Virus record (IMG/VR): IMGVR_UViG_3300044530_001128 | Coordinates: 1,186 to 65,185 of that record | DNA: 64,000 nucleotides | Strand: one strand, 5' to 3' | From: a virus | Lineage: Duplodnaviria; Caudoviricetes | In this document: positions 7,401 to 61,489 of the stretch, piece after piece | How the letters are laid out: each line of letters starts with the position of its first letter | Numbering within the stretch: position 1 is the first letter of the stretch | Notes under the pieces: generated by a model | Told to the model about the DNA's origin: nothing | Database searches by the model: none | Seen by the model: the letters and a program-made list of their open reading frames with translations, nothing else | Made by a program: the position numbers and the translations under genes

Positions 7401-9458
7401 GCCGTGCCCGGGGTCACCACGCTAACACTGGACCCGGCACCGACCACCAGCTACACAAAGCGTGAATGGTCCGTGTGGCGTAACGGCTCGCTGGTCGTGC
7501 ATTCTGAAATGACCGTCGTGGACATGGACCTCGTCAATCCCGCGTCCGGGATTACCGAAACGGTCGAGACGGATTTGCTAACGTTTGCAAATCCTCTGCC
7601 GTTCGCCCCGCAGTCGGAAGCGATGTTCAATCTGCTATCGAACAACGTGGAGCCCCGCCAGTTTCGTATCTTGGTTAACAAGGAATTGGATAATCTCCAG
7701 TTCGAGATCACGGCTATTGAGCATGATCCGACCAAGTACGCCCGCATCGAGAACAACATCCTTGTAACCCCGATCAAGAAACAGATCGACGTTAACACCC
7801 CGCTTACTCCTATTCCGTCGCTGACTGCCGTCGAACAGCTTTACAAGGCTAGCGGCGTGACTAAGAGCCGTATTACCGTAAGCTGGGAGGGCGACACCGA
7901 TGCCCGGGTGACCCACTACAAGCTACAGGTTCGGTTCAACGGGGCAGAGTGGCAAGACCTAGCCGTTACTCCGGGCACGTCCTTCACCATGGACAATACC
8001 GGTGTTGGCGAGTACATCTTCGGGGTCAAGAAGTACGGCACGTTCGTCCCTGCGACGGATTGGAAGTACGTCACAATCAATGCACTCGGCAAGTCGGCTC
8101 CCCCGGCGGATGTGGCTAACTTGACCGCAGTGCGTACAGTAAATGGCGTACAGTTGTCGTGGGACAAAGTAGTTGACCTCGATGTCGTCGGCTACGAAAT
8201 CCGCGAAGGAGTTTCGTGGGATACCTACACGAAGGTGATCACTGCGGACCTCCGTGGCACGTCTTTCTATGTCCAGATTGACGACAAGCTAGACCATACG
8301 TTTCATGTCAAGGCTATTGACGAGGTCCCGCAATACAGCACCAGCCCCGCTACCATTGTCACGTCGGTAAGTGCACCCGGCGATGTGACAGGGTTCGCGT
8401 CTATCCCTGACGACGACCGCGTACAGTTTCGTTGGGACAAGGTACTTGGTGAAAACGTACGGTACGAAATCCGGGAAGGGGCTAGTTTTGGTTCGGGCGT
8501 ACCGGTAGGCGTGTTCGGCGGCACCACCGCCAACGTCCTGTATCCTAATTCGGGCGACCGGATATTTTGGATTAAGGCGCTGTCGTCTGTCGGCCTGTAC
8601 AGCGTCAATGCAGCCACGACCTCCGTGCTTGTGCAATACGTTGTGAGCCGTAACGAGATATTCGAGGCGGTGCAGTCCGTACTTGGATGGCCCGGGGTAC
8701 CCCACGAACTGGAAGTCAGCGCTGGGCAACTTAAATTCCCTAGCGCCAGTACCCAAATGGTGGGAACCTATTACTACGAATTTGACACGGGCCTTTACGC
8801 GAAGGTTCGTACGTGGCACGACTACAGCATCGCAGTCGATCTAGCCACTCCGACTTGGGCGGCGGCTACTTTCACTTGGAGTAGCCCGGACGCGCAAAAC
8901 TTGGTATGGACACCGCGAGGGGACCTTGAAGGCTCCAGAGCGGAGAGCCGTATCTCTACCAAGTTGGCGACGATCCCCTCCCCCATTGTCGAAGCCTTTA
9001 GGCTCGATAATTCAACCACTGGCATTAGGGGCACGACCATCGGGGCAAGCGCAGGTATCGCCTACGCCCCGGCTAGGTTCGCGGACGGTCTTGTGCTTGA
9101 ACAGACGATGTCTGCGACATGGGCTATCGCTATCCCATCCACCTTCAACTACACCTTCACTATCAGGTTCACACCGCTGCCCTCAGAAGCCTGCCGTTAC
9201 TGGAGAATATACAACGGTGGGGGCGGTTGGCTGGAGCTTTGGTACTACGAAGACACGGCGGAAGTCGGCCTGCTCGGGAGCGACGGTAACGAAATAAAGT
9301 TGTCGCTTTCTCTTTTGGTCGATGATATAGTCACCTTCGGTGTCGCGCAGTCCAGCACACAACGCGGGTTCTATATCTCCAATCTCCGAAGCGGAGTATC
9401 TTTGCAAACGGTTGCAAATCATTCCGCCATCGGGGCGTTCACTCATATGGCAATCTAG
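4455..9458 (+). CDS. J: Central tail fibre / tip host-specificity protein J
   Basis: 1667 aa. LSEGPV.G, WDGSFKQEWTDNPAW and YCDELVPDGFGGVEPRF motifs; C-terminal FN3-like repeats. Confidence 0.95.
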   Translation: MPDGILPNRGVAVPQGAGGKSGSPAPQQQQVYRPVQTPDSIRSKAIARFTEVLSEGPVKGPKNAGQSFTFGGTPLQNGDGTYNYKGVFTDFRYGYPTQDPFVGLTDVETEVNVDQQAKASLNIAEKAVVTNGGSGYSSEPDVTFPNNPGMTGYATVSGGKVVSVTLTGFGANIVTATVPVTFTGGGGTGAAAYCTVGGGVIRTIANEDLDALRVTMRVDALYAQTDKGDLYGNSIQFRWQIKPNGEDWQLPDWPGLFSPLATGSLTTPVASGIAATVSTTLTKTGPWELKVEYTQAGLEGSGPWYELGSDSGQFTADKDLTGQVKTAYIERTFYTKTPAFGTTAYTFRIVKGTRVNVGYYSNDGVISISEKNMSPVDMQYRIALPAGKAPWQVRLQRFKKDATDTKIQDTFSWRSYTEITEARMMYADTACVNYTVDSQYFGNQISTRGVDMYGRIISVPSNYYPVDPNVRHVIGYNTNFTSNLSSALWNWDRSNVNMTSRTAVPASPTGYDSIMTSTAGNTLIVQSNPYTGSERQWTAVAIVNPNKGTTPLSRALRLGFGYTGPGASYVQWTPSTNAVTAAAGASWVVDDYDVTPLNDGYYRLRITVTATVDIVFTRAYLQVLATLTGETYCVSGITAVAGPNLLTFTETGDVNPATSNGPVLGARYGQDRYYDGLWDGSFKQEWTDNPAWCFHDMVTHRRYGCGRYINANAVDAAALYQIGKYCDELVPDGFGGVEPRFTLNVQIKNDEQAYTVLNTMVSAFRGILFWAAGYVGAAADMPRATQRLVSRANVVGGDFNYVGTARKARHSVASVKWVNPEDRWQNNYEIVEDPELVSRFGYNATSVVGFGVTSRGLARRLGLWILDTEKYASEMVTYKAGIDHIDAAPGEIISIADPAYAGIRQGGRLKGGATTTTATMDAPYTFNADEEYSATVQIPSWGKVTSTANVANITGVGTKFTYNIQVGDMFMFKDVPQQFKVTAVPGVTTLTLDPAPTTSYTKREWSVWRNGSLVVHSEMTVVDMDLVNPASGITETVETDLLTFANPLPFAPQSEAMFNLLSNNVEPRQFRILVNKELDNLQFEITAIEHDPTKYARIENNILVTPIKKQIDVNTPLTPIPSLTAVEQLYKASGVTKSRITVSWEGDTDARVTHYKLQVRFNGAEWQDLAVTPGTSFTMDNTGVGEYIFGVKKYGTFVPATDWKYVTINALGKSAPPADVANLTAVRTVNGVQLSWDKVVDLDVVGYEIREGVSWDTYTKVITADLRGTSFYVQIDDKLDHTFHVKAIDEVPQYSTSPATIVTSVSAPGDVTGFASIPDDDRVQFRWDKVLGENVRYEIREGASFGSGVPVGVFGGTTANVLYPNSGDRIFWIKALSSVGLYSVNAATTSVLVQYVVSRNEIFEAVQSVLGWPGVPHELEVSAGQLKFPSASTQMVGTYYYEFDTGLYAKVRTWHDYSIAVDLATPTWAAATFTWSSPDAQNLVWTPRGDLEGSRAESRISTKLATIPSPIVEAFRLDNSTTGIRGTTIGASAGIAYAPARFADGLVLEQTMSATWAIAIPSTFNYTFTIRFTPLPSEACRYWRIYNGGGGWLELWYYEDTAEVGLLGSDGNEIKLSLSLLVDDIVTFGVAQSSTQRGFYISNLRSGVSLQTVANHSAIGAFTHMAI

Positions 9459-9470
9459 GAGGGACTAAAC

Positions 9471-9980
9471 GTGAATAGCATTCGGCAAGTTAGCGCAGCG
9501 GCACTGTCCGCACTGGCGAACAGGATCGGCGGACACGGGTTCGGGGAGCGACTGCCTCTCAAGGGCTCGTGGGAATTCATTCTCACCGACCGAGACGGTA
9601 AGGTTCAGGATTACCGCAAGAAGGACAACCTGATCACCGACGTGGGCTTCCAGTTCCTCGCTGACACGTCCTTCATCGCTTCCGGTCGCCCGGCCATCGG
9701 CAACTATACGGCCATTGGCGCGACGGCAACGGCTCCCGCTGCTGGCAACACGGCGCTGGGATCGCAGCTTGCCCGTCAGACGAACACGTACAGCTACGCG
9801 GCCAAGGTTGCTACGCTGTCCACCACGTTCGCCGCTGGCACCGGCACCGGGGCGGTCGTGGAGGCTGGCATCCTCAATGCCTCTACTGCGGGCGTCCTGC
9901 TCAACCGTGTCACCTTCACGGTCATCAACAAGGGCGCGCTCGACACCCTCGCCGTGAACTTCACGCTCACGCTGTCGTAA
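9471..9980 (+). CDS. Tail-associated structural protein
   Basis: RBS GGAGG before GTG. NLITDVG...AIG...E.GILNA...LLNR pattern common in small tail-fibre-associated proteins. Confidence 0.7.
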   Translation: MNSIRQVSAAALSALANRIGGHGFGERLPLKGSWEFILTDRDGKVQDYRKKDNLITDVGFQFLADTSFIASGRPAIGNYTAIGATATAPAAGNTALGSQLARQTNTYSYAAKVATLSTTFAAGTGTGAVVEAGILNASTAGVLLNRVTFTVINKGALDTLAVNFTLTLS

Positions 9981-12184
9981 TGACTACCACCAGCATTAGC
10001 GTAACCCCGGGCGCAGACTGGACTTGGGCCACGGCTACATGGCCGTGGGACGATGCGTACGCAGGGGCCTTTTGGTCCGCTGCGTACCCCGGGGACTACA
10101 CGCTCGATGCTGGAGAATTTGTTGCGTCGCAGGGCAATTACCTGCAACTCAGCGGCGCGGCCGTAGGGACTTATCCCACAGATTTCCCTGCGGGTACTTA
10201 TACCGCTATGACTTTCGAGGGGTGGTTTCGCACCAACGCAGCGCAGACAGGCGGCCCCACTGTTATGGTTATCGGGGCCATCAACAATTTCCTGTCGTTC
10301 AGTAACGATGTCCCCAATCGTCTACGCGTCAAGGTAGGCTCAGCCAATACCTTGGCGTACCTAGCGATCACCACTGGTGCGTGGTACCACGTTGCAGTGA
10401 CGTATGATGCTAACGCTTTAGACGGTAACATTTTCAAAGTATATCTTAACGGGGCGTTAGCCTCGTCCAGCACTCTTGCATGGGCGTCTTACACCCCGGC
10501 GGCCGGGGCTAAGGTATTGTTGCCCGCCTCCGCTACTTATACAGGGGCTCTACGAGGTGTGCGGATATGGAACTACGCCCGTTCGCAGAAAGAGATCAAT
10601 GACTGGCGGTTCCGTAACGCCAATAGTCTTGACCCGCGCCTGCTGTTCCATGTTCCCGTCATTCAGGATGACCATCAGAACGAGAAACAGGCGGCTACGG
10701 CTAATCAATTAAAAGTAACGGACACTATGGCTTCTCCGTGGAGCCTCGTGCGTTCCACTAAAACTAATAACGCCGCCACTGATCCGCTAGGCGGCAACAC
10801 TGCTATTAAACTTGCGGTGGATGCGTCGGGCACTACCTCCCATTATGTGCGCTATCAGGCAACAGCCGACGTAGATTTGTGGACTTTTGAAGTCTTTGTT
10901 AAGGCCGCAGAAATGCGATACGTGTGGCTTGCCATCGACCTCGGCTTTATCGGCGGCGGCAATCAGTATCTATTCTTTGACATGTTGACAGGAGTATTCA
11001 CCACTGCCCCGGACTCCCGGTATCCCTATTACTCTTCGTTGGATGTCGGGAATGGGTGGTATGTGCTTACCCTGACTGGAAATATCGTGAATGCCGTTGC
11101 AGATTATCTCTACATCGGCGCGGCCGACACGCCCACAAGTACGGTCACTACCGCAGCGGTCGGCTCTGGCATCTACGTGTGGGGTCCCCAATGGGAGAAG
11201 GGTTTCCCCACGCCGTATGCCGCAAACCCTACCAGTACGGCTGGCGGCACTCCGCGCACCGCAGATCGGCCCGCTATTGGAACTAACACGTTTGGGCAGG
11301 ACGGCGGGGGTATCGATGCCGTCTACAAGGATACCGTGAAAGGTAACTTTGCCGAGACACTAACTCTTGCCGAAGTAGGATGGCGCGGACCCGAGGGTAA
11401 CTACCCCGAGACGCTGGCCGTTGCCGAAGTGTACAGCGATTTGTTCAACGCGATCATGAATATCGGAGAGACGGTCAATTTTGCAGACGTTTGCAAAAAA
11501 GACGCCAGTATTATCAAGGCCGAGGTAATGGCTCTCGCGGAAGTTATTCGTAAAGGACCGGGATTGAATGTAGGCGAAACACTCGCCCTTGCGGAGAGTT
11601 ATACCGCAGCCGCAGGCTTCATACGCGTTATCGCGGAAACGCTGAACATAGTTGACGCGGTTCGTAAAAATCCCACCAAGAATGTTCCAGAACTTCTACG
11701 AGCGATTGACTACATTCTACGCAAAGGGGATGGCGTACTAGCCGACGCGTCCTTCGAGAATGTATTCCTTACCCCGGAAGCGTTCATTGCTAGGTTTGTT
11801 GATCCAGTGCCGCCGGGATACACTGGCTGGACGCAATTTCTGCCGGGTGATTACGAGTACAAAACCGCCCTAGTTGAAACTAAGCTCATTAGGGAGCATT
11901 TGACGCAGGACACCCGACTTACCCGCTCAGAGATACGAGCCGATATGCCCGACTTGCTGGAGAGCGGGGAATACACGGTGGCGTTGACTTCTGGCACCGA
12001 GACGGTATCGCTTACCAAACCGTTTACTGCGGTAAACGATGTGCAGATCACAGGTGTATCGGGGGCGGTGGTTACTACCCCTCGGGTGCCCAGCTACACG
12101 ACTACAGGCTTCAACATCGAACTTAGAGACTCGGCTAATGTACGCCAAGTCGGCGTTATCCGTTATACTGTGAGGGGGTACTAG
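9980..12184 (+). CDS. LamG/concanavalin-like domain tail protein
   Basis: TFEGWFR...WYHVAVTYD...VYLNG...VRIWNYARS LamG signature; E-T-L-x-L-A-E repeats in the C-terminal half. Confidence 0.8.
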   Translation: MTTTSISVTPGADWTWATATWPWDDAYAGAFWSAAYPGDYTLDAGEFVASQGNYLQLSGAAVGTYPTDFPAGTYTAMTFEGWFRTNAAQTGGPTVMVIGAINNFLSFSNDVPNRLRVKVGSANTLAYLAITTGAWYHVAVTYDANALDGNIFKVYLNGALASSSTLAWASYTPAAGAKVLLPASATYTGALRGVRIWNYARSQKEINDWRFRNANSLDPRLLFHVPVIQDDHQNEKQAATANQLKVTDTMASPWSLVRSTKTNNAATDPLGGNTAIKLAVDASGTTSHYVRYQATADVDLWTFEVFVKAAEMRYVWLAIDLGFIGGGNQYLFFDMLTGVFTTAPDSRYPYYSSLDVGNGWYVLTLTGNIVNAVADYLYIGAADTPTSTVTTAAVGSGIYVWGPQWEKGFPTPYAANPTSTAGGTPRTADRPAIGTNTFGQDGGGIDAVYKDTVKGNFAETLTLAEVGWRGPEGNYPETLAVAEVYSDLFNAIMNIGETVNFADVCKKDASIIKAEVMALAEVIRKGPGLNVGETLALAESYTAAAGFIRVIAETLNIVDAVRKNPTKNVPELLRAIDYILRKGDGVLADASFENVFLTPEAFIARFVDPVPPGYTGWTQFLPGDYEYKTALVETKLIREHLTQDTRLTRSEIRADMPDLLESGEYTVALTSGTETVSLTKPFTAVNDVQITGVSGAVVTTPRVPSYTTTGFNIELRDSANVRQVGVIRYTVRGY

Positions 12185-13228: not shown

Positions 13229-14005
13229 ATGCTCATGCAAACCCCGATGGGATTTTTCGGAAAGACGGAATTCAAGGTTTCCGTCACCACGGCCATCAGC
13301 CAGACCAGTTTGCGTACGCTTGCAAATAATGCAGGGTACGGCGGCGGCGGACCCTGCACGATCACGATCACTGGTACGGGCTCGATAAAGTCGAACTCTA
13401 CCGCCACTCCTTCGCTCACGCGAGGTACGTGGCCCGCAGGTGTCGTACCGACGTTGATCATACTGTCAGGCGGCAAAATCGAAGGCTGCGACGGAGCCCA
13501 CGGCAACGGCGGCGCTGGTGGAATATTCGGTGTTGCAGACGCGTCTAATGGCGGTGCTGGCGGCGCTGGCGGCCTTGCCCTGTCTGTCGACAGTGATGTC
13601 ACCATCGACAATGCTGGCCTTATAAACGGAGGCAAGGGAGGCGGTGGCGGTGGCGGCGGCGGGAACTGGACAGGGACCAGCACACCCGACCCCTTGAGTG
13701 TCTACGCTCAAGGCGGGGCGGGAGGCAACGCGCCGGGCGGGACTGGCGTAGCAGGTTCCGTAAACACCAATGGCCCTCTTACCTCCACAGGAGGCACCGG
13801 AGGCAACGCTGGTGCGCAAGGCGCAGCGGGAGGCGCTGGCGGCGCTGGAAGTAACGGTGGCACGGGCTCCTCCTCCGGTGGCGGCACGGATACTTGGGGC
13901 ACCATCGGCCTTGGGGGCTCGGGCGGGGCCGGGGGCGGGGCCGTAGTCGGCAACGCTTTTATCACATGGCTCGCCACCGGTACGCGCAATGGCAGCATCA
14001 CGTAA
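13229..14005 (+). CDS. Glycine-rich tail fibre tip/adhesin (T-even gp38-like)
   Basis: IDNAGLINGG.GGGGGGGG and GGAGG repeats; follows the fibre gene. Confidence 0.7.
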   Translation: MLMQTPMGFFGKTEFKVSVTTAISQTSLRTLANNAGYGGGGPCTITITGTGSIKSNSTATPSLTRGTWPAGVVPTLIILSGGKIEGCDGAHGNGGAGGIFGVADASNGGAGGAGGLALSVDSDVTIDNAGLINGGKGGGGGGGGGNWTGTSTPDPLSVYAQGGAGGNAPGGTGVAGSVNTNGPLTSTGGTGGNAGAQGAAGGAGGAGSNGGTGSSSGGGTDTWGTIGLGGSGGAGGGAVVGNAFITWLATGTRNGSIT

Positions 14006-15000: not shown

Positions 15001-15061
15001 TAATGTTTCTAACACGGACACATAAGTCCTATTTGCAAACGAATGCAAACGCAGGCCGCCC

Positions 15062-17160: not shown

Positions 17161-17261
17161 GAAACTCTTTGCATTCGTTTGCAAACGGGTGTAAAGTCCA
17201 AAGGTCGGGATGAGCCGACGTGAATTGTAGCCAAAACCTTCAACGTTAAAGGATGATCACC

Positions 17262-18614: not shown

Positions 18615-18722
18615 GGCGCACGAGACAGCTAGGACTAGGAAAAAGTCCACGCCCAAAAACGTGAACCGAACGGCCTAACCTGCTGTATGCCCGTCTTGGG
18701 CGTTTCCTCCCTAACCTAAACA

Positions 18723-48263: not shown

Positions 48264-48264
48264 C

Positions 48265-50751: not shown

Positions 50752-51146
50752 TGGCTACCGTATCGCACCAGATCGCTGTCGCCGCCGTCGCGCTTCGCTC
50801 CTGTCAGCAGCGCGATATCGCCAACCCCGAATGGGAGGACCGTTGGGACGAACGACTGACGGCCATCGCCAAGAACGCGCTCCCCCGCGGCTCGGGCTTT
50901 GACTCGGGCACGAAGATCGTGGCGGAGAAATGCACCGAAGAGAAACTGGTGCTGACCACGGCCTTTCATCACATGGATACGAACGGGTTCTACGATGGCT
51001 GGACCGAACACACGGTGACGGTGACGCCGTCCTTCATCGGGGGCTTCAACATCAAGGTGTCGGGCCGGGACCGGAACAACATCAAGGACTACATCGCGGA
51101 GACGCTGCGTCATGCGCTTGACCAGCCCTACGAGTGGCCCGTCTGA
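50751..51146 (+). CDS. Conserved phage hypothetical protein
   Basis: LPRGSGFDSG...FHHMD.NGFYDGWT motif; TAATG coupling. Confidence 0.7.
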   Translation: MATVSHQIAVAAVALRSCQQRDIANPEWEDRWDERLTAIAKNALPRGSGFDSGTKIVAEKCTEEKLVLTTAFHHMDTNGFYDGWTEHTVTVTPSFIGGFNIKVSGRDRNNIKDYIAETLRHALDQPYEWPV

Positions 51147-51458
51147 TGGCCGCTAACAGCTACGACGACATCCGTGTCCGCGACCGGGTGACGTACAGAA
51201 CTCCGCATGGGCAGACCAACACCGGTACTGCCATGATGTACGGCACCCACGGATGGGTGTTGGATCGGGGCAACGGCCAGCCGGTTGTTGTCAGCGAGGA
51301 GAACTTCATCAGCATGCGCCGCGCTCGCGCTCGCAAGAAGGACAACATCGGACAGTTCCTCTTCGGTAAGCCGAAGTAAGTAAACCACCTATTGCCCGGG
51401 GCAGTCGTCCCGGGCAATATGCTTTTGCCGGTCCAGCAACCGGTGTAACGGAGCAAAC

Positions 51459-51872
51459 ATGCAAGTCCTGAAACAAGCGACGAGGTGGGCGGTCGCACGC
51501 CTGCACAAGAGCCAGCAAGAGCAGTTCTACACCGGCCGGGCCGGGGAGAATTGGCTGTCCCCTTCGCGAGGCGATGCGTTCGTCTACACGTTGGAGGGTG
51601 CGGGCAACAAGGTAATCGCCTTTACGGCGATGTACCCGGAGGAGACTTTCATCGCTCTGCCGCTGCCGCCGGTAGTGTCGCTGGCGTTCGACCAGCGCGA
51701 GTTGCGGATCATCCAGTCTGCGCTGCGCGCCGTCGCCCCCACTGGTGGCGGGTCGGCACCCCACTCGCTTGAGCGCGCGATTGCGGATGCAACTCAGGTG
51801 TCAGCCGACGATAATCTCGTTGCGACGTACTGCAATACGGTCGTTGACGAATACAAGGAGAGCCTGACATGA
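51459..51872 (+). CDS. Hypothetical early protein
   Basis: Cassette leader with GGAGCAA RBS. Confidence 0.65.
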   Translation: MQVLKQATRWAVARLHKSQQEQFYTGRAGENWLSPSRGDAFVYTLEGAGNKVIAFTAMYPEETFIALPLPPVVSLAFDQRELRIIQSALRAVAPTGGGSAPHSLERAIADATQVSADDNLVATYCNTVVDEYKESLT

Positions 51873-52073
51873 CGATCATCACCGGAGAAGAGAACACCCG
51901 GATTGTCCAGATGATGGCCGCACGCGGTGCCATCAAGCTGGAGGCCCTCGGCATGAAGCGCCGGGGCAAGTCGGCTACTTCCCTCTGGAAGAAGCACCTC
52001 GGGGTCACGGGCAACCGCGACGCCGTGTTGAAGGAACTCGACGCGCGCATCGAAGCGGCGAAGGAGGCACGCA

Positions 52074-52448
52074 ATGCCCGCTGATCCGAAAGTCGTACTC
52101 AACATGTACGGCGTCTCCCGCGAAGCCCTCAAGACGGCCGTCGAGGAGAACCTCGAAGCCATGATCTCCCGGGAGCCAGCCAAGATGCTGGCTCTCTCCA
52201 TGCTCTCCGACGCGCAGGAGTTAATGCAGCAGCAGATGGTGCCGGGGGACCACATCGACAAGGCCCGGCAGATGATCAACCGGGCCAAGTACGTCCTCGA
52301 CACCCACACGATGGAGAAGCACAACCCCGCCCACTCGCTCTTGAAGCAGTTGGTCGAAGCGCTTCCCGATCCTGACGGCCAGAGCGCGCTGTACCGCTCC
52401 CTCTGGGAGTCGGTGCAAGACTACAAAGCCACCCACATCGAGGAGTAG
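52074..52448 (+). CDS. Hypothetical protein
   Basis: RBS AGGAGG. Confidence 0.65.
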   Translation: MPADPKVVLNMYGVSREALKTAVEENLEAMISREPAKMLALSMLSDAQELMQQQMVPGDHIDKARQMINRAKYVLDTHTMEKHNPAHSLLKQLVEALPDPDGQSALYRSLWESVQDYKATHIEE

Positions 52449-52853
52449 CAATGCGTACCAAGTCATCGTTCGTCACGGCTTACGAACAGGCGCTCAAGGA
52501 AATGTATCCTTGGGCGCGGGAGGACCCAGAAAAGTTAGCCCGGTTTATGATGTCGGTCCGGGCGACCGTGTTCCAGAACCACAGTACGTGGAACACGTCG
52601 GGGTCCGCCGTCGAGAACGCGTGGAAGGCCATCGGCGGGCCGGGCAAGTTCAGCCTCAAGAAGTTGCGATCCCTTCCCCACGACTAAGGAATTCGTGCCA
52701 TGCTCACTCGTGCGCGGGTTTCCGCCATATATGAAATAGCTGTCATCCCCTCACCTAGCGGGGATGACATGCTGGATGGCCTCATATACGCGTGTCGCGA
52801 GTACCTTCGCAATGAAGGTATCCGCGTAGCCGTACAAGACAAGGAGCAACCGA

Positions 52854-53297
52854 ATGATAAGTCCGTTCGACCCACGACACCGGCCGGATGACCAGACCTT
52901 CACGTTCATAGCCCCGGACTTCGCCGGGGTGTTCTGCGTCAGCCTTATGGCGCGTGAATTGTTGGAACGCTTCCCGGTGGAAATGGAAGGCATCCTCTGC
53001 GAAGCGCCGCTGGAGGAAAGCCTCGTCCAGCACATCGTGGATCACAACGGGGTGGAGGAGCCCCGGGTAGCCCGGCTCATCCCGGAGTACCGGGACAAGC
53101 CCTGCCTTGTTGCCGACTTCGAAGGTAAGCATGTACTTATCGATGGCAACCATCGAATGGTGCGCCTGTGGCGTGACGGCATCCGCGTCGTCAAGTTCTA
53201 CTACCTGCCCCGCGCGATATGGCAGGACTACCTGATGGACGTGCATCCCGACACTGTGCGGCGTGCGGGGTTGCTGGGGCACTCTGGGGTGAAATGA
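52854..53297 (+). CDS. ParB/sulfiredoxin N-terminal-like domain protein
   Basis: PCLV...HVLIDGNHRMVR motif; RBS AGGAGCAA. Confidence 0.7.
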   Translation: MISPFDPRHRPDDQTFTFIAPDFAGVFCVSLMARELLERFPVEMEGILCEAPLEESLVQHIVDHNGVEEPRVARLIPEYRDKPCLVADFEGKHVLIDGNHRMVRLWRDGIRVVKFYYLPRAIWQDYLMDVHPDTVRRAGLLGHSGVK

Positions 53298-53374
53298 ACT
53301 CCCCGGTTTGCAACCGAGTGCAAACCGGGTACCTTACTCGTGCCGGGGCTTTTCCCGGGAATAGGAGCAATGCG

Positions 53375-53767
53375 ATGTCAAGTCTCGAAAGCATGGGCAG
53401 CACGGAGTTCTCTGGCGAGGACGATGAGGGCCTTCGTCCCGACCCCGTCCCGACGTGGTGGTCGGTCGCCGTCTTCATGGTGGATCGCGCCTACGGCGGA
53501 CCCGAAGAGGGCGGCTGGTGGTACGACTACGGCTACCCGGTCAATGACGCGGAAATGGCCCCGCTCCTGCGCGTGTTCGGAGCAGCGAACGGCGGCGAGG
53601 AAGCCGCCCGCACCTACCGCAACGAGTTGCAGGCCAAGCTCGACGCCGAAATGAATGTGGGCCGGGTCGACATAGGCAGCGTCCTTAGCGACGGTGTCTA
53701 TCGGGCGGTAGTCACCGACGACGACTACCCCAAGGCGTACCCCTCCGAACGCCCGCGTTTCGAGTAG
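53375..53767 (+). CDS. Conserved phage hypothetical protein
   Basis: DRAYGGPEEGGWWYD.G...P..RP.FE motif; cassette leader. Confidence 0.7.
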   Translation: MSSLESMGSTEFSGEDDEGLRPDPVPTWWSVAVFMVDRAYGGPEEGGWWYDYGYPVNDAEMAPLLRVFGAANGGEEAARTYRNELQAKLDAEMNVGRVDIGSVLSDGVYRAVVTDDDYPKAYPSERPRFE

Positions 53768-53776
53768 GGGCCGAGC

Positions 53777-54160
53777 ATGAACACGCGATACAAGCTCGAC
53801 CGCGCCATCGAGAACCTGCGAGACGTGTACTCGTCCGCCAAGCACTTTGGCCCGACGCACGCTAAGTTGCTTGATGACGTTGCCGCCATCCGCACCAAGT
53901 ACCTCGCCCAAGCCCCCCGCTGGGCTTGGGGGGAATTCCGGGGCTACGAGCGGGCACTGTCCGACGGCCTGTACCAGTACAGCCTCGTGTTCGGGGGCTT
54001 CTTCGAGGACAGGACGTTCTACTCGACACACAGTAGCCGCCCGGACTATTACGGGACACACGGCATCGAACCCAGCGAATGGGCCGACGACGGACGAGTT
54101 ACGAAGAAAGGGCACTACTGGATCATCCGGGGAGAGCCCAAGCCCTTCTTCGTCAAGTAG
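53777..54160 (+). CDS. Hypothetical protein
   Basis: ORF in the early cluster. Confidence 0.6.
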   Translation: MNTRYKLDRAIENLRDVYSSAKHFGPTHAKLLDDVAAIRTKYLAQAPRWAWGEFRGYERALSDGLYQYSLVFGGFFEDRTFYSTHSSRPDYYGTHGIEPSEWADDGRVTKKGHYWIIRGEPKPFFVK

Positions 54161-54230
54161 TTACTGCCCCCGACTGCGTAGCACAGGCCGCAGTCGGGGT
54201 TTCCCTCAACGCCTGATGCAGGAGGTCGAT

Positions 54231-54464
54231 ATGGCATTGAAGTCAACCGGGGCCAAGCCCGCTGCTACCAAGGCTGGCGCAGCCGGGTTCGAAGCGGAGT
54301 ACACGCTCTCTCGCGAAACCAAGGGCACGTTCGTGTTCGAACGCGATGGCCTCACGAAGGAGACTCGGTTCTCCGGATCGAACAGCATCTATCTCCAGAA
54401 GGCCGACTATCCGGACGGCCCGCCGAAGAACCGGATGCGCGTGATCCACGAATTCATCGACTGA
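54231..54464 (+). CDS. Small protein with K/A-rich N-terminus, possibly DNA-binding
   Basis: RBS AGGAGG; MALKSTGAKPAATKA...RETKGTFVF...SIYLQK. Confidence 0.65.
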   Translation: MALKSTGAKPAATKAGAAGFEAEYTLSRETKGTFVFERDGLTKETRFSGSNSIYLQKADYPDGPPKNRMRVIHEFID

Positions 54465-55088
54465 TCGTCGATCACCGGCTAGCCCCGCTATCGAAAGGTA
54501 GCGGGGCTACAGCCAGTAAGGAGGGACAGTATATGCGCTACAGGGTGGAAGTTCTCGTGAAGGTGTACGACATCAAGCGAGGCGAGACGGAAGTTTGGCA
54601 GGCCCTGCACCCCACAGGAGGTGAGCCCTATTCGTGGGGCACCCGGCGCGAAGCCGAGACTATGATGAACATGTGCTACCCGAGCCACAAGGACAAGGCC
54701 CGGGTCGTGGAGATAGCGCAATAGGCATTTTGCAATCGCGTGCAAAACAGCCCCGAGACAAGTAACCCGACCTCGCGGCGCTGATGGGGATCGGGCTATA
54801 ATGCCCCTGCCGGGAACGTCCCCGGGATAGGAGCAACCAGTTAATGATCGATGACGAACTGCGGCACGACCTCACCGACAAGTTGGACGACGAGCAAATT
54901 GCTCTGATGAATGACGCCCTTGCGCGTCCGTGCATCGTTGCCATCTTGGAGGCGCTGGTAGGTGCCGCCCTGCATCCCCACCAAGGGCAGTCCGGGGGCG
55001 AAGGGCAGATCAGCTTCAATCTCCAAATCGGGGACGACGTGGTGTCCGTCACGCTCGACCATATCTCGACCTAAGAAGGAGCAACCCA

Positions 55089-55367
55089 ATGTCAACGCCA
55101 ACCAGCCCCGAGAACCTGCAGCGCATCAACGCGTATTTCGAGGCGCAGTCAGAGTTCTTCGGCATGCTCGCCGGACGATGGGCCGATGAGCGCGAGTACG
55201 AGGACATCGCGGACTACCAGAAGGTACTCCAGCGGGACGCGCCCGAGGGCTTCACGATCACCGGCATGGTGAAGCGCCCGTTCGGGTTCCAGTTCACCAT
55301 CGGCACGGATGCCGTGTACGCGATCAAGTGCACGTCGCGCACCGTCTCGTGGTCGCGGGTGCGCTAG
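55089..55367 (+). CDS. Hypothetical protein
   Basis: RBS AAGGAGCAA. Confidence 0.65.
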   Translation: MSTPTSPENLQRINAYFEAQSEFFGMLAGRWADEREYEDIADYQKVLQRDAPEGFTITGMVKRPFGFQFTIGTDAVYAIKCTSRTVSWSRVR

Positions 55368-56070
55368 ACAGTATCGCGGCCCTTTTCCCGATGGAGGGGG
55401 CCGCGCTATACTCCAAGCCCGGGGCCAGCACCCCGCACACAACGGAGCAATGTCATGTCTTTCCCGGTCGTCTACCTGCACCATGAAACCCTCGATAAGC
55501 ACGAGGGCGGGGCCATCCATGTCTACAAGTGCATGAGCCCCCTCACCGACTACCAGACGGTATGGAGTTACCGGATCACCTGCATCGGCTCCCACGGCGA
55601 GACGTACTCGATGAACGAGTTCTGCGCGCATATGTACGGGTCGGTGACGGAAGCCGAAGCGGCTGCGATGAAGTACGCCCGCAACCACGCAACCTCGATA
55701 TAGGGGCGATGCGATGGTAACGATCAAGAAGGAACTCGTCTCCTACGCCGAGTTCCCCGAGTTCGCGCTCAGCGCGTGCAACGGGCAGACGGTGTTGAAT
55801 CACATCAACAACGGAAGTCTCTCCAAGTTGTACTGGTCGGACTGCGCCGTGATGGGCCTCGGCGGCTCGACCTTCACGGACGAGAACGAGTTCAACGGGT
55901 GGCTTGGGGCCACCCTGCGGGCGCATGTCGAAGAGCCCGACGCCGGGGCGTCCGAGTTCGTCATCCTCGACCCTGCCAAGCAGATGGTCACCATTCTCAC
56001 CATCGACAACGAGGAGTAATCCGGGGTAAACTCTTCCTGCGGGCCAGCACCCGCTTATAGGAGCAATGCA

Positions 56071-56433
56071 ATGGCACAAGGTATCGAGTTCACGTTCACG
56101 AACGCCGACGACGAGGAAGAGGTCGTCACCCTCCCCTCCAAGTGGTGCATCTGCGGCGGGTGCAATGGAGACGGTACGTCTTCCGCGTACCTCGGGGCGA
56201 TCACCATGTCTGATCGCGAGCCCGGGGGCTCGTGGGAAGACCCGGACGAATTTCGGGACTACATGTCCGGGGCCTACGACCGCGAGTGCGAGCGCTGCAT
56301 CGGCACCGGCAAAGTCCGCGTCGTTGACGAGGAGTGCTGCAATCCGGTACACCTCAAGGCGTACAACGACCACCTCGAAGAAGAGCGCGACTACGAGCGC
56401 ATGTGCGAAGCCGAGCGGAGGGCCGGGGCATGA
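56071..56433 (+). CDS. Zn-finger (CxxCxGxG x2) phage protein
   Basis: CGGCNGDG...SGAYD..CERCIGTG. Confidence 0.7.
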   Translation: MAQGIEFTFTNADDEEEVVTLPSKWCICGGCNGDGTSSAYLGAITMSDREPGGSWEDPDEFRDYMSGAYDRECERCIGTGKVRVVDEECCNPVHLKAYNDHLEEERDYERMCEAERRAGA

Positions 56434-56670
56434 GCATCGACCTCAAGCCCGCGCAGGGCTCTCCCGGATGGGAGGTACTTAAGGATAAGTGCCGCGCCGC
56501 CGTCGAGCGCAACGGCGTGGAGGGGGACGCGGAGGATGCGGACAACCTCTACGATGAAGTCTACACGTCGGGCTTCGACGCGCTCCACGACTTGGGCGTT
56601 GACGACTGGACTGCCGGGGAGGTGGCCGCCGAGCTAGCGCGGGACATGGCCCAGCCCTAGAATAGACACG

Positions 56671-56745
56671 CAATACCCCGTATGTCCGGAATGGCATACG
56701 GGGTATTATTCTTTTGCGGGAACGGTCCCGCGAGCAGGAGCAATG
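56671..56745 (+). repeat. Repeated intergenic cassette, copy A (near-identical copy at 58211-58285)
   Basis: AATACCCCGTATGTCCG...CGGGGTATTATT-TTTTGC-hairpin-AGGAGCA present at both loci. Confidence 0.85.
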
Positions 56746-57016
56746 TAATGATCCTCTACCGCGATTACTTTGAAATGAAGCGCATCCTTGCGCCCCTCTT
56801 CAACACCGTCGAAGAAGACCTCTATCTCGATGGGACTGATGTGGTGCGCACGTCCGACGAAGAGGGCAAGACCATCGCGCGTCTCGACGTTGTCGGCACG
56901 GGCAAGGTTCGTGTCTCGTTCATCCTCAACTACAATGAAGACCCCAACCGTCCGGCCGTGGTGATCGACGTGCCGGGGGCCGACTACGAAGCGCACGAAG
57001 GACCCAGGAGGCACTG

Positions 57017-57406
57017 ATGGCCGAGCCCACGTTCGCTGCGACGTTCAACAACACAGTGGACTGTCGCAGGTCCCCGATGCGTGTCTGGTCGCAACTCTAC
57101 GCGGTCAATGCAGATGGAGGATTTCGTATCCCGCAGTACATCAACCTGCCGAACAATGTGCAGGTCCATCGCGACAAGGCGGGGCTCGATGATCCCATGA
57201 CTGCGTTGCGGGGAGCAGCCCGCAACATCCTTTTGTGGAACCCCGCCGTACGCGAGTACATAGACTACACCCACGAGGTTGAAGCTATGTTTCACCTCAT
57301 GCTCTGCCAACAAGAGGGCGAGTACAAGAACCAGCATATGCTGGAGGTGATCGGCCGCTCTTACGGTCGCCATCTGCAGCAGGTGTTCCTGCGCGTCTAC
57401 TACTGA
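57017..57406 (+). CDS. Hypothetical protein
   Basis: RBS AGGAGG; TGATG coupling. Confidence 0.6.
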   Translation: MAEPTFAATFNNTVDCRRSPMRVWSQLYAVNADGGFRIPQYINLPNNVQVHRDKAGLDDPMTALRGAARNILLWNPAVREYIDYTHEVEAMFHLMLCQQEGEYKNQHMLEVIGRSYGRHLQQVFLRVYY

Positions 57407-58287
57407 AAAACCCAATGAAATCAAGGAGTTAGCAACTCTCCGTTTTGCAACCGTGTGCAAACGTCGTACATTACTCGTGCCGGGACCGTCCCCGGGAATA
57501 GGAGCAAAGCATGTTTAATCAGGAGTTCGGTACCCACAAGACGCTGTGCCTCACGCCCAGCGGGAAGTTGGGCATCCGGTTCGACCACCTCGCTGCGGCT
57601 GTCGAGTATGTGCACGCCCGCAACGCCGCCAATCAGTGGAACGTGGTCCGCTGGTTCTCCCCGTCCAAAGCCAGCATGTCGGCCACGCCGATGCTGGAGT
57701 TCACCGCTCGCGCGCCCGAAGACATCGCACTCGTTGCACGGAGGTAGCCATGGCCGACTACTACTCAACCCGTAAGGATGGCGTCGAGTTCTTGAAGAAC
57801 GGACGCTCCCACGAACGCGTGTGGCGTAAGCAAGGCATGTCCTGCCGCGTCTACGAAGCGCACTGTCGCGCCGTCCGGGACGTGCAGTTCCGCCGTGTCA
57901 GGGAGAACCCCTATCCTCCCGGCCGTCGCCATGACACCTACGCGGCTACCATCGCCGCCAGCAAGGAGGGCTAGGCCATGCAGTTCCGTGTCTCCCTCGT
58001 AAAAACCAAAGATGGCCGGGGCACCTTCGCCCTTGTCGATGTAGCATCGTCGGGGGGCTCCTACCGAGGCGCAGGAGTTACCCGGACCTACCACACCGCG
58101 AGCCAGATGGAACGCGCCCGGCGCGAGGCCCGCACCGTTGCCAAGAGGTACTACGACAAGCACAAGACTGCTGTCACCGGCCCGATGCGTATCTGCGACG
58201 TGTAGACTGATAATACCCCGTATGTCCGAAAGGGCTTCCGGGGTATTATTTTTTTGCCGGGACCAATCCCGGGAATAGGAGCATCAA

Positions 58288-58644
58288 ATGGCACAAGATG
58301 ACACCACTCTCGCTATCCTCGACGACCTGAGCAAGTCGGCGTTCGGGTTCCGCGCCCGCAAGTACGACGTGTGGAAGAACATGTCGAACGAGGAAATCGA
58401 CGCCGAGTTCGCGTACTACCAGCGCGAGAGCGACGAGAGCGAGGCCCGGGAAGCCCGCGCGGAGGAGCTTGCCCGCGCCCGCCTCAAGGAACACCTCAAC
58501 GACCTGATGTCCAGCCACGGCATCGACCGCCAGACGGCGATCCGGTGGGCGATGCAGGCAGCAGACTGCGAGAATGACTTCGAACACTTCTGCTGGACGT
58601 GGGGCTTCCTCACCAAGAACACCGACACCAAGGAGACGATCTAA
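58288..58644 (+). CDS. Hypothetical early protein
   Basis: Cassette leader; D.SKSAFGFR.R motif seen in small phage proteins. Confidence 0.7.
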   Translation: MAQDDTTLAILDDLSKSAFGFRARKYDVWKNMSNEEIDAEFAYYQRESDESEAREARAEELARARLKEHLNDLMSSHGIDRQTAIRWAMQAADCENDFEHFCWTWGFLTKNTDTKETI

Positions 58645-58859
58645 TGCGTATCGGGACCTCTAACTTCGTGAACCTCACCAAGGCGTGCGACTACTACCGC
58701 ACGCAGGACGCTGGCTCCTTCACCCCGGCGGGGTTGGAGAGCTACGTCAAGCATTTGGTCGAGCGTGGTGATATCCACCTCGGCAAGCCGGATGTCCCGG
58801 TCGGGGGCAAGTTGCTCCTGATCGACAACAACTGCCGTTACGCAATCGAGGAGTAAGCC

Positions 58860-59282
58860 ATGTCTGTCAAGTTCAAGTGGTACGAGATCACCGAGGCGAT
58901 GTACTCGGATGCGCTCAACGTCCTGCCCCCGATGTTGTGGACGCCATCGCGGGGCTTTCTGGTGATGGAGCCCGTCACCGACCGCAAGTGCACGTTGTCG
59001 GGCAAGTATGTGTGCACCTTCTCCGCGTTCCTGCTGGTCAACGGCAAGTATTACGGCGGTCCCGACCTTACCCGGCAGGAGTTCATCATGCTCAACCCGC
59101 CGGAAGCCGTGAAGGACGCCGTACCGCTGCCGAGTCTGCACGACGCGTTCGACGTGGTGTGTTCGCTCGCGGTGGGGAACCTCGCCCCGCGCGAAATGCT
59201 CGATGAGCGCATGAAGCAGCGGGTGTCGTTGTCCATGATCGACAACCACTACCAGCACGAACTCAAGGCCGGGGGCAAGTAA
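58860..59282 (+). CDS. DUF1419-like protein
   Basis: WYEITEAMYSDALNVLPP...GFLVMEP motif. Confidence 0.55.
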   Translation: MSVKFKWYEITEAMYSDALNVLPPMLWTPSRGFLVMEPVTDRKCTLSGKYVCTFSAFLLVNGKYYGGPDLTRQEFIMLNPPEAVKDAVPLPSLHDAFDVVCSLAVGNLAPREMLDERMKQRVSLSMIDNHYQHELKAGGK

Positions 59283-59605
59283 TGGCTCGCTTCGATCCCC
59301 CTCCCGTGAGCGGCAAGCACGGGGCACCCATGGGCAGGCGCGACAACTTCACCTTTGTCGATAAGAAAGGTAGGTTGTTCGAACTCACCGTGACTGACAA
59401 CGCCCCACCCATGCGCCTCTCCCGTGTTCGCATGAGCGCGGACGGCTGCTATGACAGTGGCGGGGCGTATTGGGGTCAAGGTGACCCGCTCTACTACTAC
59501 GAGAACAGCACCGGCGACATCAACGGCTATGTCCGGGGTAAAACCCGGGAAGCGGCCAAGACCAACGTGAAGGTACTCTACCCCCACGCACGTTTCTATA
59601 GGTGA
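59282..59605 (+). CDS. Conserved phage hypothetical protein
   Basis: HGAPMGR...YDSGGAYWG.G.PLY...R..AK motif. Confidence 0.7.
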   Translation: MARFDPPPVSGKHGAPMGRRDNFTFVDKKGRLFELTVTDNAPPMRLSRVRMSADGCYDSGGAYWGQGDPLYYYENSTGDINGYVRGKTREAAKTNVKVLYPHARFYR

Positions 59606-60138
59606 TTGCCATGAGCAGCTACAACGTCTTCGAGAAGATGCGCGCCAAGAACGAGACGGTGCGCGAATACGCCAAGGCCAACGGCATTCCGCTGGAGTCG
59701 TTGCCCCTCAAGTACAAGCCCGGGGACCGTGTCATCTTCCTCAATGACTACGGCATGCATTGGGGCGAGCGCATCATCAAGGAGTTCGACCCCGGGCGCG
59801 TCGGCGAGTGCTACTTCACCGAACGCACTGACACACCCGGGGAAGCGTGGTGGTGCGCCCATCAAGTCCATACGCTCTACCCGCTCGACCACATGCCCAT
59901 GTTGTTGTGGGCCATCGTCTTCAACAGCGGGTACCGTGACTGGCCTGCCTTCAAGGGCCGGGAGCTTCCCCGCGTTATGATCGATGACTTCCACCAATGG
60001 TGTTGGGAGCGGGGCATCGCAGCACGACGGGTTGCCGAGGAGTACGGCATCGCGCTACAGTTCGACATCAGCACACGCGCCATCTATGGAGAACCCCTAT
60101 GCGATACTTCCTCGCCCATGTATGGGCTAACGTCCTAG
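59602..60138 (+). CDS. Hypothetical protein
   Basis: ORF in the early cluster. Confidence 0.55.
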   Translation: MIAMSSYNVFEKMRAKNETVREYAKANGIPLESLPLKYKPGDRVIFLNDYGMHWGERIIKEFDPGRVGECYFTERTDTPGEAWWCAHQVHTLYPLDHMPMLLWAIVFNSGYRDWPAFKGRELPRVMIDDFHQWCWERGIAARRVAEEYGIALQFDISTRAIYGEPLCDTSSPMYGLTS

Positions 60139-61489
60139 CCCTCCGGTATATGTGGCGTGGCTTTCAGATCACCACGTACCGGGGTTACGATGGTAGGTGG
60201 CTTGTCCTCCTAACGAAGGAGACAGGCAGCCACTACCACTACAGGTACGTGGGCGGGGACCGTAACCTGATCCCCGAGCTATATGAATTTCTGCACACGA
60301 TTGCAAATCCTAGACAGGAGCCGCTCACGCCTGTAGTCCTCGTCCCGGGGTTCCGTATCGCATGGGACGATCCTACCAAATCGGGGACTTATAGCCTGTC
60401 CGCTAACCCCCCAAATTTGGCCGTAGCACCCCTTCGACCGGGGGCGGGGGCTCCACCCCCTTGCCAGCCCCGCGCCCCTCTAGCGCCCCCCAGCCGTACC
60501 ATCGCAACCACGGTATGGCGTTGCCTATCCGAGCGAGCGGGGTACCTTGACTACTCCCAATCTTGGGGAGTACCCATCCACCATCTGGGGTGTATCCTAT
60601 TCTCTGTACCCCGGGGCCAACCCCCAAATGTGGTCAAGTGGGTATGGATCATAGAGCAGCCCAAGCCTGTCCGCCCAACCCGAAAAGACTGAGGGCGGGG
60701 ACCATGATACTGTACATAGCCTTCCTATTCTCTCTAGTAGATGGCAACTACTATGTAGCTGTATTGCTCTGTCTACACTACCTGACTAAGGACCTATGAC
60801 TAGAACTACCCCATTTCGCCTACTTACATAGTTCCATTGCCGTAGCGTTTGACAAGATTTCCCCATCGTAACCCCCACACAGGAAACCCAATAAAATCAA
60901 TGGTTTTGGGGACCTCTACGAACAGAAAAAATGCTTAGGGCGGGGAACATCCTACTACCCTAAACCTATCCCTTATAAGACCTATAGTATATCCATTAGT
61001 ATCTCCTACTCATCCTGTAGACAGTAAACGGGTAGGGCTAGTTCTGCCATCTAGATGTAGATCGGCTACGTGCAGGGGTCTTGTCTGTTCTATGCACTTG
61101 TATTCAGGTCTTCTGTCCGTTCCCAACGCCTGACGTGAGCAAGAAGTAGGTGATGGCGAATTTTTCACAACTATGGAAGTTGATAGTAAATAGTTATGGC
61201 CGAAGGCTCTGTAGAAGATGATGACGCGCGAGTATGGCTGAATGGGTGAATGTGAAGATGAATGTAGAAGGAGTAGGAGAAGAATGATGGAGGAGAAGAA
61301 GAGCAGATGATTGTAGGAGAAGATGGCGTGTAGAATGGGGCGGAGAAGGTGGCCTGTCTTTGCACTCGTTTGCAAATATCCGTGATGATAGTTAACTATC
61401 GTTTGCCATATACGGGGGTTACGATACACTACGAATAGCAACAGCCATTCCGGCTGGGGCAGTAGAAACAGGAAAGCGAGAACTACATC

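Follow-up and report, generated by a model that had tools for sequence, protein, structure and literature searches.

What does a palindromic DNA word do inside genes, and why should its copies there be translated mostly in the same reading frame? The question is raised by a stretch of viral DNA (hereafter the window: 64,000 nt, positions 1186-65185 of the 65,185-bp IMG/VR virus record IMGVR_UViG_3300044530_001128, CheckV completeness 66%) in which a short palindrome recurs both between and within genes. An earlier note on this DNA had reported that the in-gene copies leave a peptide imprint of the type L-Q/H-x-hydrophobic-A-K/N, and had attributed their common frame to a tolerated amphipathic helix. 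We suggest, as the probable answer, that a single word read on duplex DNA is kept at even intervals by selection and is written into genes where spacers are lacking, the frame skew being passive.

The word stands far above chance. The pattern TTGCNNNNNNNNGCAA (TTGC-N8-GCAA) occurs 31 times in the window, against 0.90 expected from shuffled sequences, and none of 100 shuffles reached that number (~30-fold excess); the hexamer TTGCAA occurs 50 times against 11.2 expected, and the exact form TTGCANNCGNNTGCAA was found 23 times in the whole record, compared with 0 for a backwards control word. Allowing up to two mismatches to TTGCAANNNNTTGCAA returned 39 places, and removal of the look-alikes at 17179, 29907 and 51820 left 36 accepted copies. 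Their aligned consensus is tTTGCAA-nCG-nTTGCAAa, recurring on average every ~1.7 kb, with no further conserved flank and no T run when all copies are aligned. A viral contig, G003 (25,952 bp), adds 16-17 copies to the 36 of the window. It ends with the same 127 bases (25826-25952) with which the window's record begins, and the two very probably belong to one ~91-kb genome.

The window thus very probably covers about two thirds of a siphophage genome of ~91 kb, of the type known from the Rhodobacter RcF phages and Agrobacterium phage JP1. Its relatives by gene order and 28-43% protein identity are Agrobacterium phage JP1 (96.9 kb, record PQ741606) and the Rhodobacter phages RcDurkin and RcTiptonus (cluster RcF, 94 kb); blastn of the window against cultured phages gave short PolA pieces only, and a helicase search yielded no close relatives among viral contigs or metagenome contigs. 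JP1 has 33 copies of the word, and the relatives designated G001, G002, G003, G004 and G005 have 20, 11, 9, 5 and 3. RcDurkin is nearly free of the word under the 16-mer pattern and carries 27 copies of its 14-bp core, against 0 for the control. The word is kept across genomes whose GC content ranges from 0.40 to 0.63 and whose shared proteins are only 25-43% identical; its outer form, TTGCA-N6-TGCAA, is family-wide, and its centre is phage-specific (AACGTT, ATCGAT, ACCGGT, AGCGCT or GGTACC). Every relative found carries it, none free of the motif having turned up, and we conclude that the word marks a whole family of ~95-kb siphophages. The sameness of the outer arms TTGCA/TGCAA in Rhodobacter phages, Agrobacterium phages and uncultured relatives of very different GC could also mean that a conserved host factor (for instance a nucleoid protein, a regulator, or a nuclease of defence or repair) reads the word and is recruited or evaded by the phage. 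We consider this improbable: the GC range suggests very different hosts, a phage-specific centre better fits a co-evolving phage protein, and we know of no host site with the word's sequence. No Rfam family was found at the palindrome sites. Ten of the 33 JP1 copies lack the central CG and show CA or TG there instead (TA in one), as deamination of a methylated CpG would produce.

The way in which copies differ from one another bears on what is being read. Word positions 2-5 and 12-15 (TGCA) are almost invariant, and the variable positions, 1/16 and 6/11, change on one side at a time; over the 53 copies of the window and G003, 39 departures in the arms were uncompensated and one was compensated. 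At four of the five sites folded as RNA, the bare element gave -5.3 to -8.3 kcal/mol (z -0.8 to -1.8); the fifth, at 53308, sits within a longer inverted repeat with an 11-bp stem (53300-53331; -19.8 kcal/mol, z -5). Because the arm changes are uncompensated and the folds weak, we take the word to be two half-sites read on duplex DNA and not a selected hairpin. An RNA or single-strand DNA hairpin between cistrons, serving as a signal for mRNA processing or stability, or for translation from a position just 5' of ribosome-binding sites, could form a 7-bp stem with a 4-nt loop, and would suit JP1. There the non-coding copies are wedged between stop codons and ribosome-binding sites: by hand tabulation, 10 of 23 begin 0-5 nt past a stop codon, and for 14 of 23 the distance from their end to the next start codon is 6-22 nt. 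We nevertheless hold the hairpin to be decidedly improbable, since, beyond the uncompensated arms, the stems are no better than shuffles in four of five cases tested, no T run follows the sites, copies lie deep inside genes, and the antisense strand would fold equally, yet nearly all window genes lie on the + strand (PHROG and Pfam scans).

The imprint itself can be accounted for from the word's possible translations. Being palindromic, it offers the same three readings on both strands, frame 0 being the TTG-CAA frame. Frame 0, read as TTG-CAA-nCG-nTT-GCA-AAn, encodes L-Q-[SPTA]-[FLIV]-A-[K/N...]; frame 1 encodes [FLIV]-A-[NTSI]-[GAVD]-C-[KN]; and frame 2 encodes x-C-[KN]-R-L-Q, which besides the TGC codon also fixes Arg, Leu and Gln. 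Cysteine makes up 0.9% of residues in the window phage, and the product of residue frequencies predicts frames 0:1:2 in proportions of 0.823:0.164:0.013 (16-mer) or 0.914:0.079:0.007 (18-mer). When genes are called conservatively, the window copies divide 14:1:1, far from one third each (P = 1e-5) and no different from the 82:16:1 expected from amino-acid usage (P = 0.44); the 18:1:0 of the earlier note gives P = 0.13 against the same null. G003 divides ~7:1:0 (accepted open reading frame (ORF) calls), and JP1 and RcDurkin divide 7:3:0 and 12:4:0 (deposited annotations). The four together make ~40:9:1, and a pooled 41:9:1 gave a two-sided P of 0.71 against the null (40:9:1 on recount). Because frames 1 and 2 each need a TGC cysteine codon, ordinary protein constraints largely predict the skew, and the imprint is a passive by-product of what proteins tolerate. 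The amphipathic helix proposed as its cause is unnecessary, amino-acid frequencies alone giving 82:16:1.3. A null based on BLOSUM costs was discarded because real sites contaminated it (cost-0 positions), and the residue-frequency product was used instead; automatic six-frame ORF calls, which pick long antisense shadow ORFs in GC-rich DNA (as at 17169 and 33962), were left out of the counts.

Individual copies illustrate both the bias and its exceptions. In frame 0, the J-like tail gene (4455-9458) has one copy deep inside it (7575-7590, TTGCTAACGTTTGCAA, LLTFAN) and another 41 nt before its end (9402-9417, LQTVAN), and a weak copy with two mismatches lies 81 nt from the start of gene 13229-14005 (13310-13325, LRTLAN). 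The same frame is used in gene 22465-22854 (22603-22618, CTGCAACCGGTTGCAA, LQPVAK); twice in gene 25791-27038, which has a weak likeness to replication protein O (26031-26046, LQSLAE; and 26994-27009, LQTIAA, 29 nt before the gene's end); 93 nt after the GTG start of PolA at 28965 (29058-29073, TTGCAAACGGTTGCAA, LQTVAK), in an N-terminal extension absent in homologues; and 62 nt before the end of gene 31940-32341 (32264-32279, TTGCAACCGGTTGCAA, LQPVAN). The helicase gene has a copy just after the Walker A motif GAGKT (35503-35518, TTGCACACGATTGCAA, LHTIAK) and another at 36109-36124 (TTGCAACGGATTGCAA, LQRIAN). The remaining frame-0 copies lie 63 nt after the ATG (38155) of the RecA-like ORF, before its conserved core (38218-38233, TTGCAACCGATTGCAA, LQPIAK); in the Holliday-junction resolvase gene, 23 nt short of its end (39816-39831, TTGCAATCGGTTGCAA, LQSVAI); in gene 43181-43765 (43415-43430, CTGCAAACGATTGCAA, LQTIAK); and in gene 43762-45243 (44638-44653, CTGCAATCGCTTGCAA, LQSLAK). 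Frame 1 is represented by 11481-11496 (TTGCAGACGTTTGCAA, FADVCK) in gene 9980-12184 (Laminin_G_3), the sole secure copy in a cysteine frame. The site at 53308-53323 (TTGCAACCGAGTGCAA) reads VCNRVQ in frame 2 if ORF 53219-53767 starts upstream of it and is otherwise non-coding, and may be a frame-2 copy absent from the earlier list.

That list named 19 peptides, all of which are correct translations at their places, and counted 18 of the 19 in one frame; the bias holds, the count does not, as 6 of the 19 are doubtful as genes or sites. The sequence at 29907-29922 (ATGCAACTGCGTGCAA, MQLRAK), in the exonuclease domain of PolA, has three mismatches to the 14 fixed bases and is probably not a site, homologous polymerases having similar residues there. 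The copies at 20418-20433 (TTGCAATCGTTTGCAA, LQSFAN), 25293-25308 (weak, TTGCACACGATTGCAG, LHTIAE) and 60291-60306 (weak, CTGCACACGATTGCAA, LHTIAN, ORF 59997-60692) fall in ORFs with coding scores of 4.7, 3.8 and below zero, without PHROG or Pfam match and without a relative. The first lies 135 nt upstream of the most likely start of the AAA ATPase (20569), and the second is more likely non-coding. The copies at 29058 and 38218 belong to N-terminal extensions, and homologous PolA and RecA start only downstream of them. In the helicase of G001 and G005 the word is in frame 1 (VANGCK, VASACK), and JP1, RcDurkin and G004 have a cysteine at the same column; the word appears to have been placed where the protein already fitted it.

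Selection on the DNA, as the earlier note had claimed, is supported by the excess of the word, its minority codons, its equal occurrence between genes, homologues without the peptides, and the conservation described below. Outside the sites, GC3 is 0.74, and the codons that the word imposes are indeed disfavoured there: TTG makes up 13% of Leu, CAA 30% of Gln, GCA 10% of Ala and AAA 19% of Lys codons. When homologues were aligned, none of the nine alignable in-gene sites of the window had the same hexapeptide in a homologue (0-3 of six residues shared, read by eye), and no homologue had a site at that column, so that positions turn over. The notion that the hexapeptide L-Q-x-hydrophobic-A-K/N is itself selected and the DNA palindrome follows draws on its recurrence in many unrelated proteins; we find it scarcely credible, given that half of the copies are non-coding, that the peptide is spelled every time with the rarest codons and is missing from homologues, and that frame-1 and frame-2 copies encode other peptides.

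In the same alignments the gaps at the in-gene copies are 0-1 residue long, not 5-6, from which it follows that the word was made in place by substitution. This speaks against insertions of a small mobile palindromic element of the REP/MITE type, which would have left 5-6-codon insertions. Such an element would suit a dispersed palindrome that is often wedged between genes and has near-identical copies in JP1, G001 and G002; it is very improbable, because there is neither conservation of the flanks nor target duplication, and the window copies differ at the centre and arm ends. RcDurkin and RcTiptonus, 98.3% identical over 91,666 aligned bases, give little power. Of the 27 RcDurkin core copies, 25 are the same in RcTiptonus, one differs by a single substitution and the last borders a replaced segment. 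With that copy excluded, the other 26 sites have one changed base out of 364 and their flanks 69 out of 3061 (P = 0.005), and the five copies in divergent surroundings show 0/70 against 58/600 (P = 0.002).

About 19-20 of the 36 window copies are non-coding and 16 lie in genes, in a window that is 84% genic (preference for non-coding DNA, P = 3e-7 with 19/36); 23 of 33 copies in JP1 and 11 of 27 in RcDurkin are outside annotated genes. Half of the in-gene window copies (8/16) are no more than 100 nt from a gene end, where 3.7 would be expected (P = 0.01). In-gene copies are concentrated in the tail and replication blocks, where long, tightly packed genes leave no spacer, and in the region of small genes from 46 to 64 kb the copies are almost all non-coding.

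Two of the non-coding copies lie 1-3 nt from both neighbouring genes: 2229-2244, among minor tail genes, is 1 nt after a stop codon and 1 nt before the ATG at 2246, and 3709-3724 is 3 nt after a stop and 2 nt before the ATG at 3727 (both TTGCAAACGGTTGCAA). Others follow the endolysin gene (15033-15048, TTGCAAACGAATGCAA), lie 8 nt after the spanin-like gene (17169-17184, TTGCATTCGTTTGCAA), touch the 3' end of a match to the mmgR-like small RNA (18758-18773, TTGCAACCACTTGCAA, centre not CG), or fall in a stretch without a supported gene (19371-19386, TTGCAATCGTCTGCAA). The copy at 33962-33977 (CTGCAATCGTTTGCAA) separates the primase and SSB-like genes, and that at 41342-41357 (TTGCAACCGTTTGCAA), 3 nt after the stop of the RuvC-like gene, has a counterpart at the same junction in JP1 and RcDurkin. 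Three precede genes at some distance: 49571-49586 (weak, CTGCATACGATTGCAA) by 31 nt before gene 49618, 61360-61375 (TTGCACTCGTTTGCAA) by 114 nt before gene 61490, and 62231-62246 (TTGCAATCGAATGCAA) by 61 nt before gene 62308. The other non-coding copies are 24344-24359 (TTGCAATCGATTGCAA), 46444-46459 (TTGCATTCGATTGCAA), 48581-48596 (TTGCACTCGATTGCAA), 50447-50462 (TTGCAATACATTGCAA, centre not CG), 54730-54745 (TTGCAATCGCGTGCAA) and 57445-57460 (TTGCAACCGTGTGCAA).

The spacing is even. Gaps between window copies have a coefficient of variation (CV) of 0.44, against 0.98 by chance, the largest gap being 3866 bp, and none of 10,000 simulations was as regular, even with half of the sites anchored to gene starts. 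JP1 and G001-G004 behave alike (CV 0.37-0.65 against ~0.96, P <= 0.02), as do RcDurkin and RcTiptonus at a tolerance of one mismatch; counted by their exact copies alone, these two are not regular (CV 0.97 and 0.94). The earlier suggestion that position along the genome matters is therefore upheld, or, more exactly, it is the spacing that is under selection.

About half of the copies lie just upstream of genes, dimeric regulators typically bind 16-bp palindromes, and in RcDurkin a core copy ends 2 nt before the start of gp12, a helix-turn-helix (HTH) protein. These facts would fit ordinary operators at promoters, bound by a phage or host transcription factor, with in-gene copies as internal operators or promoters and the spacing as a reflection of operon structure. 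We think this unlikely. The aligned copies have no conserved flank resembling -35/-10 elements; 44001-64000 has six promoter-like matches against 8.0 expected, none of which overlaps a palindrome; many copies leave only 1-22 nt to the start codon, too short for a promoter; and the spacing is far more regular than that of sampled gene starts. Moreover, copies lie deep inside J, helicase, terminase and tape-measure genes. On our preferred reading, that of a duplex word kept evenly by selection, the two half-sites would serve a dimeric protein, and selection would keep the word at ~1.5-3 kb intervals along the whole chromosome. A short intergenic spacer would be the preferred place; if an interval offers none, point substitutions would create the word within a coding sequence, by preference close to the ends of genes.

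Which protein might read it? A ParB-like protein is encoded just upstream of terminase in 6/6 family genomes that cover the region (JP1, RcDurkin, G001, G003, G004 and G005), and is annotated in JP1 and RcDurkin (gp23 in the latter) as a 'ParB-like nuclease domain' protein. Among the annotated DNA-binding proteins of these two phages it is the only one found by tblastn in all covering family genomes; none of their other annotated HTH proteins is family-conserved (tblastn, 1e-3), apart from a weak MerR-like match. Pfam ParB_N (PF02195) matches the JP1 and RcDurkin proteins with 43.1 and 39.9 bits (cut-off 26.3), and a profile of the family matches solved ParB, Noc and KorB structures with E-values of 9e-15 to 3e-10. 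In Foldseek, the AlphaFold model (pLDDT 77.4) has its best matches in C-terminally truncated KorB, ParB and Noc over ~190 of 254 residues, KorB 8qa9 being best (E 1e-8); the TM-scores are modest, 0.33-0.44, and pLDDT is 58-80 in the putative HTH part that follows the N-terminal domain. The Asn of the RN-x-LRG box is invariant in the alignment of these proteins.

The wider distribution of the protein and of palindromes points in the same direction. Among 28 viral loci with relatives of the ParB-like protein, 14 have at least one exact TGCAA-N4-TTGCA and 16 have at least three near-copies, against 0/28 for the control. On a 19.4-kb viral contig (L163), a ParB-like protein 57% identical accompanies nine copies of TTGCAGGTACCTGCAA at ~2-kb steps, with the same outer arms and a different centre; four other loci (L168, L175, L176 and L178) have ATAAC/GTTAT-type palindromes instead, and six more show nothing clear. 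This fits co-evolution of the ParB-like protein and its putative site. We tentatively name the ParB/KorB-like protein as the likeliest reader of the word. It stands in a conserved block with a DprA-like protein and a glycosyltransferase upstream of terminase (JP1 983-4386, RcDurkin 7815-10968, G003 3698-6660), and this block could be a DNA-modification module instead of, or besides, encoding a site reader.

The leading idea for the array is clamp loading on, or coating of, the whole chromosome. It is possible, and we put it forward with reserve, that the sites are loading sites, at intervals of <=4 kb, for a partner-less ParB/KorB-like protein that would spread or slide to coat the chromosome for silencing, protection or packaging. 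The protein's reach would then set the spacing, selection would be strong enough to force the word into essential genes, and the centre of the word would co-evolve with the protein from phage to phage. A precedent is KorB of the IncP-1 plasmid RK2, a CTP-dependent sliding clamp that acts at a distance from scattered operators (McLean et al. 2025, PMC11790492). The phage resembles KorB and its OB sites, on a replicon of ~60 kb, in having a scattered palindrome and a ParB-family protein, whose binding is here putative. Copies of the word are about three times as many as the OB sites of RK2. Unlike those of RK2, the phage sites are evenly spaced and often inside genes, and the phage protein has GHHR in place of GERR. 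The annotations of JP1 (165 features) and RcDurkin (141 features) name neither a KorA-like partner nor a ParA/IncC-type ATPase, no ParA profile search having been made.

A likeness to ParB-parS and to Noc with its NBS sites is also evident. The parS site, a 16-bp palindrome with a central CG, is found in clusters near the origin, and the many sites of Noc are dispersed along the chromosome. The phage shares with parS a 16-bp palindrome with a central CG, and with both systems a ParB N-terminal domain, after which an HTH may follow; the profile of its protein family matches solved ParB and Noc at 1e-14. It differs from ParB-parS in the sequence of the word, in sites that cover the whole phage genome evenly, in the lack of an annotated ParA and in its lytic-type phage context.

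Several observations weigh against the reading set out above and the reader proposed for it. The ParB-like protein of the window phage itself (G003) scores 19.2 bits, below the Pfam cut-off, and at the place of the GERR motif of ParB CTPases the proteins of this family show S-G-H-H-R, with G and R invariant, or D-G-E-H/Q-R. A tblastn comparison could miss small HTH proteins that evolve fast, so that the ParB-like protein is unproven as the only conserved DNA binder, and its co-occurrence with the word is not ParB-specific, because the same loci share terminase and other genes. When the site at the replaced segment is kept in the RcDurkin comparison, the difference loses significance (8/378 against 79/3181, P = 0.86). 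The window's gene list is home-made from codon scores and homology, and several starts are uncertain. The nearness of JP1 copies to the next start codon makes a role in RNA or translation possible; we attribute it to tight gene packing. Lastly, the more distant relatives G001, G002, G004 and G005 divide 12:6:4 between the frames by crude ORF calls, with frame 2 above their own nulls of 2.5-4%; secure frame-2 copies are those at 25128 in G004 (helicase) and at 17661 in G001 (a 503-codon ORF). The frame skew is accordingly a cost gradient rather than a rule, steepest in the window's lineage.

Genome-wide dyad repeats have been described before in Cluster O mycobacteriophages, where a 17-bp repeat, TGTTCGG-N3-CCGAACA, occurs in >30 copies per siphophage genome of ~70 kb (Cresawn et al. 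2015, PMC4351075). Ryadel has 31 copies. For Corndog the 2015 account gives 34, with 14 between ORFs, 10 near ORF 5' ends and 10 inside ORFs. As described there, the repeats have no orientation, no link to predicted promoters and no known function; the authors predict a dimeric DNA-binding protein with a role other than in transcription initiation, and, although Cluster O phages encode a protein with a ParB-like domain, they deem a role in genome stability unlikely. In the window phage, as in Cluster O, tens of copies of a dyad word lie genome-wide, between and inside ORFs, without a link to promoters. It differs in the make-up of the word (5/6-N4/6-5/6 against 7-N3-7), in host phylum and in phage lineage. 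In its passages on the repeats, the Cluster O account contains no reading-frame analysis, no spacing statistics and no named binder. The array of the window phage also recalls the stoperators of Cluster A mycobacteriophages, copies of a repressor site that lie genome-wide and also inside genes and are asymmetric and oriented with transcription (PMC4351075); unlike these, the window word is palindromic, and each of its half-sites varies on its own. A 2025 survey reported numerous orphan ParB-fold proteins from phages and in its passages on them does not mention palindromes (PMC12704722). The description of the RcF phages mentions neither the array nor the ParB-like gene and does not contain the string 'palindrom', although its supplements might list repeats (PMC8601537). 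In the literature, we found neither a paper that gives the exact 16-mer nor one devoted to Agrobacterium phage JP1, and no account of evenly spaced palindrome arrays in phages with ParB.

The genes around the sites were assigned by PHROG and Pfam. From the left, the window holds the end of the tape-measure gene, lambda-like minor tail genes, the J-like gene, endolysin and spanin. A replication block encodes the AAA ATPase, a DnaB-like helicase, a family-A polymerase with a UDG-like N-terminus, primase, helicase, a RecA/UvsX-like recombinase, the Holliday-junction resolvase, a Cas4-like exonuclease and the RuvC-like resolvase; ~18 kb of small genes make up the rest. G003 supplies the genes for the DprA-like protein, glycosyltransferase, ParB-like protein, terminase, portal and capsid and the start of the tape-measure gene. 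In the long PolA ORF (gene 28965-31919), the Pfam UDG domain occupies residues 100-215. The small RNA that the palindrome at 18758 touches is a match to Rfam RF00519 (suhB/mmgR, an alphaproteobacterial small RNA) at 18682-18765 (+), with 47.4 bits against a gathering score of 41; a phage-borne copy of such an RNA points to an alphaproteobacterial host. Five genes of the replication block, starting at 20569, 22465, 28965, 34021 and 38155, begin with similar peptides (MALIKPP, MALLKKT, (V)ALKLKL, MALLKKP and MALKLIV), and the long ORF of the ParB-like gene (G003 5683) begins MPLVKPS; the shared peptide could be a common N-terminal tag or a common translation-start element. Directly before the RecA-like gene, at ~38090-38130, a GC-rich hairpin and the T run after it look like an intrinsic terminator.

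The array is a further case of a published but unexplained kind, that of Cluster O. The frame imprint with which we began is an expected side effect and minor in itself, and the word shows cleanly how a DNA signal and a protein code can occupy the same bases, where the cost of sharing can be read directly from minority codons, from the use of gene ends and from avoidance of the cysteine frames. Cultivable phages with both the array and the ParB-like gene exist in RcDurkin and RcTiptonus of Rhodobacter capsulatus and JP1 of Agrobacterium, and these make a tractable system for asking about the role of genome-wide dyad repeats in phages, a question that goes back to Cluster O in 2015.

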